DNA of 64,000 bases from Escherichia coli (GTDB lineage Bacteria; Pseudomonadota; Gammaproteobacteria; Enterobacterales; Enterobacteriaceae): the NCBI RefSeq assembly GCF_050920415.1, contig NZ_CP169309.1; one strand, written 5' to 3'. A program made the position numbers and the translations under genes. How positions within the stretch are numbered: position 1 is the first letter of the stretch; the number at the start of each line of letters is the position of its first letter. The notes beneath the pieces were generated by a model. That model was given only the letters and a program-made list of their open reading frames with translations. It was not told the DNA's origin and ran no database searches. Positions 17,067 through 17,299 of this stretch are shown piece after piece.

Positions 17067-17299
17067 TCAAATTTTTCCACTCACCACGAGTTGTTCCGTA
17101 CACGTTTGTAGTAAAAACAGTGGACTGCCTTCTACCGGCTTTTCTTTAGCCAGCAACGAAATCTGTCGATAGAAGGTTGGTTCGAGAGGAACGGAACACA
17201 ATTCACCTGCAATGGTTTTCAGCGTTAACTCTGGTAATAAGGCGATGCCTAATCCCTGTCGAATAAAACTGATCGCTGTATCCGGGTGATTAAATTCAT
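17067..17299 (-). pseudogene. yfaH: yfaH: C-terminal remnant of a LysR-family regulator
   Basis: Minus-strand frame from ATG 17299 translates MNLITRIQRSVLFDRGLGIALLPELTLKTIAGELCSVPLEPTFYRQISLLAKEK..., resembling a LysR co-inducer domain C-terminus; no N-terminal HTH portion is present. Coordinates approximate (plus or minus 3 nt). Confidence 0.55.

Follow-up and report, generated by a model that had tools for sequence, protein, structure and literature searches.

The short LysR-like frame on the minus strand beside inaA in the 64,000-nucleotide stretch of E. coli DNA analyzed here (the window) is, with a probability that we put at about 93%, the already annotated E. coli pseudogene yfaH, a product of ordinary genome decay and not a new element. 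It had been proposed that a LysR regulator was lost from this junction. We found that the loss was neither gradual nor confined to the regulator: a single 1,879-bp deletion between two 8-bp repeats, TTTATCTG, took the 5′ parts of a LysR-type regulator gene and of a divergently transcribed MFS transporter gene, along with the control region that they shared, and made two neighboring remnants. The pseudogene was known before this work, and what is added here is the anatomy of two remnants from one deletion, the polarity of the change, its frequencies in the population and its independence from the low-GC block next to it. The gene order in the window is glpT, glpQ (stop at 15311), the low-GC block, the LysR remnant, inaA (17489-18139), yfaE, nrdB and nrdA, and the interval 15300-17500 is 100% identical to E. 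coli strain MFDS1022581. The features of the locus are listed in Table 1.

Table 1. Features between glpQ and inaA, in window coordinates.
Feature	Position	Strand	Description
Low-GC block with orphan ORF	15345-17054	-	1.7 kb, ~30% GC; bounds taken from block-free alleles
yfaH, 3′ remnant of a LysR-type regulator gene	17067-17309	-	residues 213-292 of a 292-aa protein; TGA stop at 17067-17069
Deletion junction, single kept copy of the 8-bp direct repeat	17302-17309		TTTATTTG in the window
3′ remnant of a divergently transcribed MFS transporter gene	17304-17408	+	residues 363-396 of 396 plus the stop codon
Spacer 5′ of inaA	17409-17488	+	80 bp; kept in every structural allele, even those without a LysR or MFS trace

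Translation of 17067-17300 on the minus strand gives 77 sense codons followed by the TGA stop. The original prediction had placed the frame at 17067-17299; its reading frame and stop hold, but the true codon boundary at the 5′ side lies one base further, at 17300. The frame stays open for six more codons (CAQQIK) before two stop codons at 17319-17324. It contains no ATG in the window, and its longest start-to-stop ORF has 44 codons, beginning with a TTG at 17201. The 77-residue fragment matched the Pfam family LysR_substrate (PF03466; E 7.8e-7, 29.1 bits against a cut-off of 28) over profile positions 134-189 of 209 only, so the domain is incomplete and the match shows descent from a LysR-type regulator (LTTR), not the presence of a complete domain. 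The fragment had no match to HTH_1 (PF00126), and no HTH-coding fragment was found by tblastn anywhere in the window. The NCBIfam equivalog model for the 68-aa YfaH (NF007272; PRK09729) scored 151.8 bits against a cut-off of 139, with residues 11-77 aligned to model positions 2-68. BLASTP against the intact 292-aa regulator of strain TUM20902 aligned the fragment with residues 216-292 at 75 identities in 77 (97%), and tblastn carried the LysR homology up to residue 213, at window position 17309. Descent from an LTTR is also seen in the full-length gene that occupies the same locus, with the same synteny, in other strains, at that same 97% identity over residues 216-292. The proposal that this frame is a LysR C terminus lacking an HTH is thus confirmed by Pfam, NCBIfam and BLASTP, and the E value of 8e-53 to the intact regulator speaks against a frame without significant similarity to LysR proteins.

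The name yfaH was also correctly assigned: the orthologous stretch of K-12 MG1655 is annotated as the pseudogene yfaH (b2238), in agreement with the passing NF007272 score. In the strain that is identical over 15300-17500, PGAP labels the LysR remnant 'LysR substrate-binding domain-containing protein, incomplete, missing N-terminus'. K-12 yfaH shares with the window the locus, the neighbors, the deletion junction and the LysR C-terminal frame. However, the two are only ~92% identical in nucleotide sequence over the LysR remnant; the window reads ...DTAISF... where K-12 reads ...DTAMNF..., and an ATG-initiated 68-codon ORF is present only in K-12. The 1.7-kb low-GC block that separates the remnant from glpQ in the window is absent from K-12. 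As had been described, the remnant sits between this low-GC insert and inaA; the block ends 12 bp past the stop codon of the remnant, and inaA begins with an ATG at 17489.

Directly beside the LysR remnant is a second piece that was overlooked in the original prediction, the 3′ end of the MFS gene. Its 34 residues are all identical to the intact MFS protein of TUM20902 (E 2e-19; tblastn E 1.6e-15) and contain the last transmembrane segment of the transporter, and PGAP labels the piece 'hypothetical protein, missing N-terminus'. Further decayed LysR fragments had been envisaged near this junction and none was recovered: tblastn with full-length LysR and MFS queries over 15300-17600 and over the whole window returned only the two remnants, with all other matches at E > 0.1. 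Rfam gave no match in 15200-17600 at E <= 1, and a promoter and terminator scan of 16600-17550 gave no sites, a result of little weight given that the scan also missed the inaA promoter.

Intact LysR and MFS genes lie between glpQ and inaA in O157:H7, TUM20902, MMC-J-0085, 18KM2445 and N96, and the products carry the accessions WP_001358665.1 (LysR regulator) and WP_000660231.1 (MFS transporter) in strain F3113. The intact LysR orthologue has HTH_1 at residues 3-63 (E 4.9e-18) plus LysR_substrate, and the intact 396-aa transporter matches Pfam MFS_1 (E 3e-60). The nearest named relatives of the regulator are GltC, CidR, AlsR, CynR, CysB and BenM, all far below family cut-offs. Likewise, the transporter shows a distant likeness to NorA-type DHA1 drug-efflux pumps and to unnamed MFS subfamilies, far below family cut-offs; the likeness to NorA hints at efflux of drugs or metabolites. 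Judging from the gene arrangement, the regulator presumably controls the divergent transporter.

When the window was aligned with O157, the alignment ran continuously to 17314 and resumed from 17302 with 1,879 bp skipped, leaving an overlap of 17302-17314. TTTATCTG occurs twice at a spacing of 1,879 bp in O157 (at 8005 and 9884 of the locus), TUM20902, 18KM2445, MMC-J-0085 and N96. The junction is identical across the aligned window, K-12, WP2 and E22 alleles. The octamer of the window differs by a C-to-T change from the form shared by almost every other allele and by the two copies of each intact allele. Compared with the intact parent pair, the window lacks LysR codons 1-212, and with them the DNA-binding HTH domain and about three quarters of the effector domain, as well as the 151-bp divergent promoter region and MFS codons 1-362. 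A perfect repeat at both ends in intact alleles and one copy at the junction give this the anatomy of a microhomology-type deletion. We conclude that one deletion between the two repeat copies made both remnants.

Deletions between short direct repeats, arising by slipped-strand or microhomology illegitimate recombination, were classically described for E. coli lacI. The likeness to these lies in the perfect 8-bp repeat at both ends with one copy kept. The starting state was an intact LysR gene (292 aa) and a divergent gene for a 12-helix MFS transporter (396 aa) with a shared 151-bp control region between glpQ and inaA, and the usual LysR arrangement suggests that the regulator acted on the transporter in response to a small molecule. 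The two repeat copies fell within LysR codons 213-215 and MFS codons 361-363, respectively. Deletion between them, likely through replication slippage or microhomology-mediated illegitimate recombination given the repeat anatomy, fused the two genes tail to tail and eliminated the control region. What is left is 80 LysR codons, encoding the C terminus of the effector domain, and 34 MFS codons, neither with a promoter of its own. Such a remnant would be predicted to do nothing, and it drifts neutrally; the adjoining low-GC block is an unrelated and probably earlier insertion.

The polarity of these changes was read from an outgroup scan with one genome per species. The pair is intact beside inaA in E. 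whittamii, Escherichia sp. E1V33 and Escherichia sp. MOD1-EC7003. It is followed by glpQ in E. whittamii and E1V33, and the MOD1-EC7003 sequence ends before the glpQ side. In Kluyvera and Pseudocitrobacter the pair adjoins yfaE-nrdB. None of these outgroups has the low-GC block wherever the glpQ side is visible. Because the outgroups carry the intact pair without the block, this comparison identifies the intact, block-free form as the ancestral state, the block as a later insertion and the truncated form as a later deletion.

We then turn to the frequency of each form among 5,426 complete E. coli genomes, which are a biased collection of sequenced strains. The deletion junction is present in 3,131 genomes (~58%) and the intact 1.87-kb segment in 1,217 (22%); about 975 (18%) have neither remnant nor pair. 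The low-GC block was found in 1,044 genomes, 337 of them with the junction and ~707 with the intact pair, and ~2,794 genomes carry the deletion without the block (K-12 type) and ~510 the intact pair without it. glpQ and inaA lie within 800 bp of each other in 3,769 genomes. All four combinations of block and deletion exist, and thus the two are independent events; the block edge is 247 bp from the deletion endpoint. The suggestion that this junction has been rearranged repeatedly stands, with block insertion and deletion as separate events that are each found without the other. On the window haplotype the block probably came first and the deletion later, because in N96 an intact pair accompanies the block on this haplotype.

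Further variants at the locus carry IS1, IS2 or IS5 insertions, and in B2 strains such as Nissle 1917 and an O25:H4 strain the whole glpQ-inaA interval is a 202-bp spacer (locus positions 1801-2002 in Nissle 1917). This spacer consists of its own variant of the glpQ terminator and ~90 bp of unrelated sequence, and in Nissle 1917 the sequence matches the other alleles again from the MFS stop codon onward. The B2 state is a separate and complete loss of the regulator-transporter pair, a loss that accounts for the ~975 genomes with neither form.

The low-GC block is flanked by the glpQ terminator hairpin on one side and the LysR stop codon on the other. Its orphan ORF (15531-16601, minus strand) has 356 codons from an ATG, or 368 from an upstream TTG at 16637, and had no match in Pfam, NCBIfam or PADLOC and chance-level matches only in PHROGs. 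A search of the block for the signature of a mobile element found no terminal inverted repeats and no clear target-site duplication. An imperfect 15-nt copy of the glpQ stop and terminator start is present in the left end of the block (15309-15323 vs 15359-15373, TAATGCTACTGCAGG vs TAATGCTACTACCGG), and may reflect the source of the block or the way in which it was gained. The orphan ORF is uninterrupted in the window and in the majority of strains checked, and PGAP often calls it 'frameshifted'. Between E. coli strains it has ~92-93% identity overall and 81-84% in 15900-16099, without indels, a divergence far above that of the flanks that suggests old alleles or diversifying selection.

We considered whether the LysR remnant might be a functional small gene, either the 68-aa YfaH or a fragment that interferes with other LysR proteins, kept by selection. 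Comparison of intact orthologues with the E. coli gene across the 77 codons gave 27 synonymous changes and 9 differences in amino-acid-changing codons, a balance that points to purifying selection on the intact pair. Deleted alleles show 1-4 synonymous against 7-12 amino-acid-changing differences over the same codons, and the second codon of the fragment is a stop in two deleted allele types (E22 and FHI_NMBU_03). The persistence of the remnant in more than half of complete genomes would fit a functional gene, as would the dedicated equivalog model that NCBIfam holds for the 68-aa product; however, the whole region is absent in B2 strains, and the quarter or so of the effector domain that is left would be unlikely to fold. 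In K-12-type alleles the ATG of the annotated ORF was created by I225M, one of five clustered substitutions, but the window allele, limited to its 44-codon ORF from a TTG, has no such start. yfaH is among the transcripts that responded to CpxR in K-12 in one study (PMC9600279), a change in level that could be taken in favor of function and that shows the region to be transcribed to some degree. Against this, yfaH was replaced by a marker in K-12 as a neutral site linked to gyrA (PMC2714960), without a reported consequence, and the literature on yfaH consists of passing mentions only, as a marker site or in gene lists. We therefore regard retained function as highly improbable. The LysR remnant is very probably non-functional, and it decays neutrally in other strains.

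A role in cis is, if anything, still harder to credit. Under this explanation the remnants would be kept for signals that they contain, with the inaA promoter or MarA/SoxS/Rob sites in the MFS tail and glpQ termination in the LysR tail. The 80 bp from the MFS stop to the inaA ATG are conserved in every structural allele, and the inaA promoter is presumably within this spacer. In block-free alleles the glpQ terminator hairpin directly follows the LysR stop and could serve both genes, but in the window the block puts 1.7 kb between the LysR tail and that terminator. All that B2 strains retain here is the 80-bp spacer plus a glpQ terminator of their own, without any LysR or MFS sequence, indicating that the remnants themselves are not required. 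Gene decay remains our reading of both pieces.

It is an even call whether the same 1,879-bp deletion occurred two or more times in E. coli, in which case the TTTATCTG pair would be a recurrent deletion hotspot that inactivates the regulator-transporter pair, or whether a single old deletion had its flanks replaced by recombination, which we rate about equal. The window-type deleted allele (at least 99.2% identity) was found in only 12 of the 5,426 genomes. Some 3,100 deleted alleles (K-12, WP2 and E22 types) share five substitutions in a 31-bp stretch beside the junction, at 17269, 17271, 17285, 17286 and 17299, all of which change amino acids, and the window carries none of the five. These substitutions were absent from all of ~1,117 intact alleles, and a chimeric probe found no intact progenitor of them among the intact alleles, the best match being 95.4%. 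N96, in which the pair is intact, has a block ~99% identical to that of the window and only 2 mismatches in the 2,328 bp that extend from the junction through nrdB, a shared stretch that includes an inaA allele ~5% off the eight other strains compared. Taken together, the near-identical flanks of N96 with its intact pair, the rarity of the window allele and its lack of the five substitutions suggest, at the level of sequence, that the window deletion could be a young, second event at the same repeat.

The single-origin alternative draws on the mobility of these alleles. The deleted alleles of 2013C-4282 and PCN033 are mosaics in which a window-like background carries the five-substitution patch, and four-gamete violations occur within 10-20 bp of the junction, which together indicate that recombination shuffles these alleles. 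Two arguments were considered and rejected. The shared states 17104G and 17206C were not retained as evidence for a single origin, since 17206C is the outgroup state and both are present in the intact N96 allele. A division of the deleted alleles into two discrete classes was also rejected, as the alleles grade into one another in their identity to the window, with mosaics in between. For the five K-12-type substitutions themselves, one multi-base event linked to the deletion and gradual decay are both conceivable.

The results bear mainly on annotation, where the two pieces should be described as pseudogene fragments, the 3′ end of a LysR gene and the 3′ end of an MFS gene from one deletion, and not as a 'hypothetical protein', and beyond such annotation hygiene they have little import. 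About three quarters of sequenced E. coli no longer have the intact pair, which makes the locus a clean example of ongoing gene loss. The locus could also be used as a structural lineage marker with three states of the pair (intact, deleted or absent), each of which may or may not be combined with the block. Should the deletion prove recurrent, the locus would exemplify parallel gene loss in nature at a microhomology hotspot. The role of the lost pair could be studied in O157:H7 or other carriers.

The glpT-inaA interval is a strong recombination mosaic. The inaA (17489-18139) and glpT-glpQ (13000-15344) sequences of the window were compared with eight other strains, including K-12, O157:H7 and Nissle 1917, and its inaA and glpQ alleles are ~5% off all of them; over the ~800 bp that surround the remnants, identity to several of the same eight is 99-100%. 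A mosaic is also seen within the pair. About 95 genomes, represented by ECNB21-M121 (locus positions 3254-5487), carry a LysR allele that is only ~78% identical in nucleotides over its 3′ part, and the MFS gene beside it in ECNB21-M121 encodes the same protein accession as in O157 (WP_000660231.1). This combination of a divergent LysR with an O157-type MFS gene indicates a recombination breakpoint inside the pair, with a divergent Escherichia lineage as the donor. Finally, a 3.5-kb contig labeled as a metagenome-assembled Collinsella genome (JAIJJM010000334.1; MAG: Collinsella sp.) encodes the E. coli LysR protein at 100% identity and also holds the orphan ORF and the end of glpQ; it almost certainly entered the metagenome bin as E. 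coli contamination.
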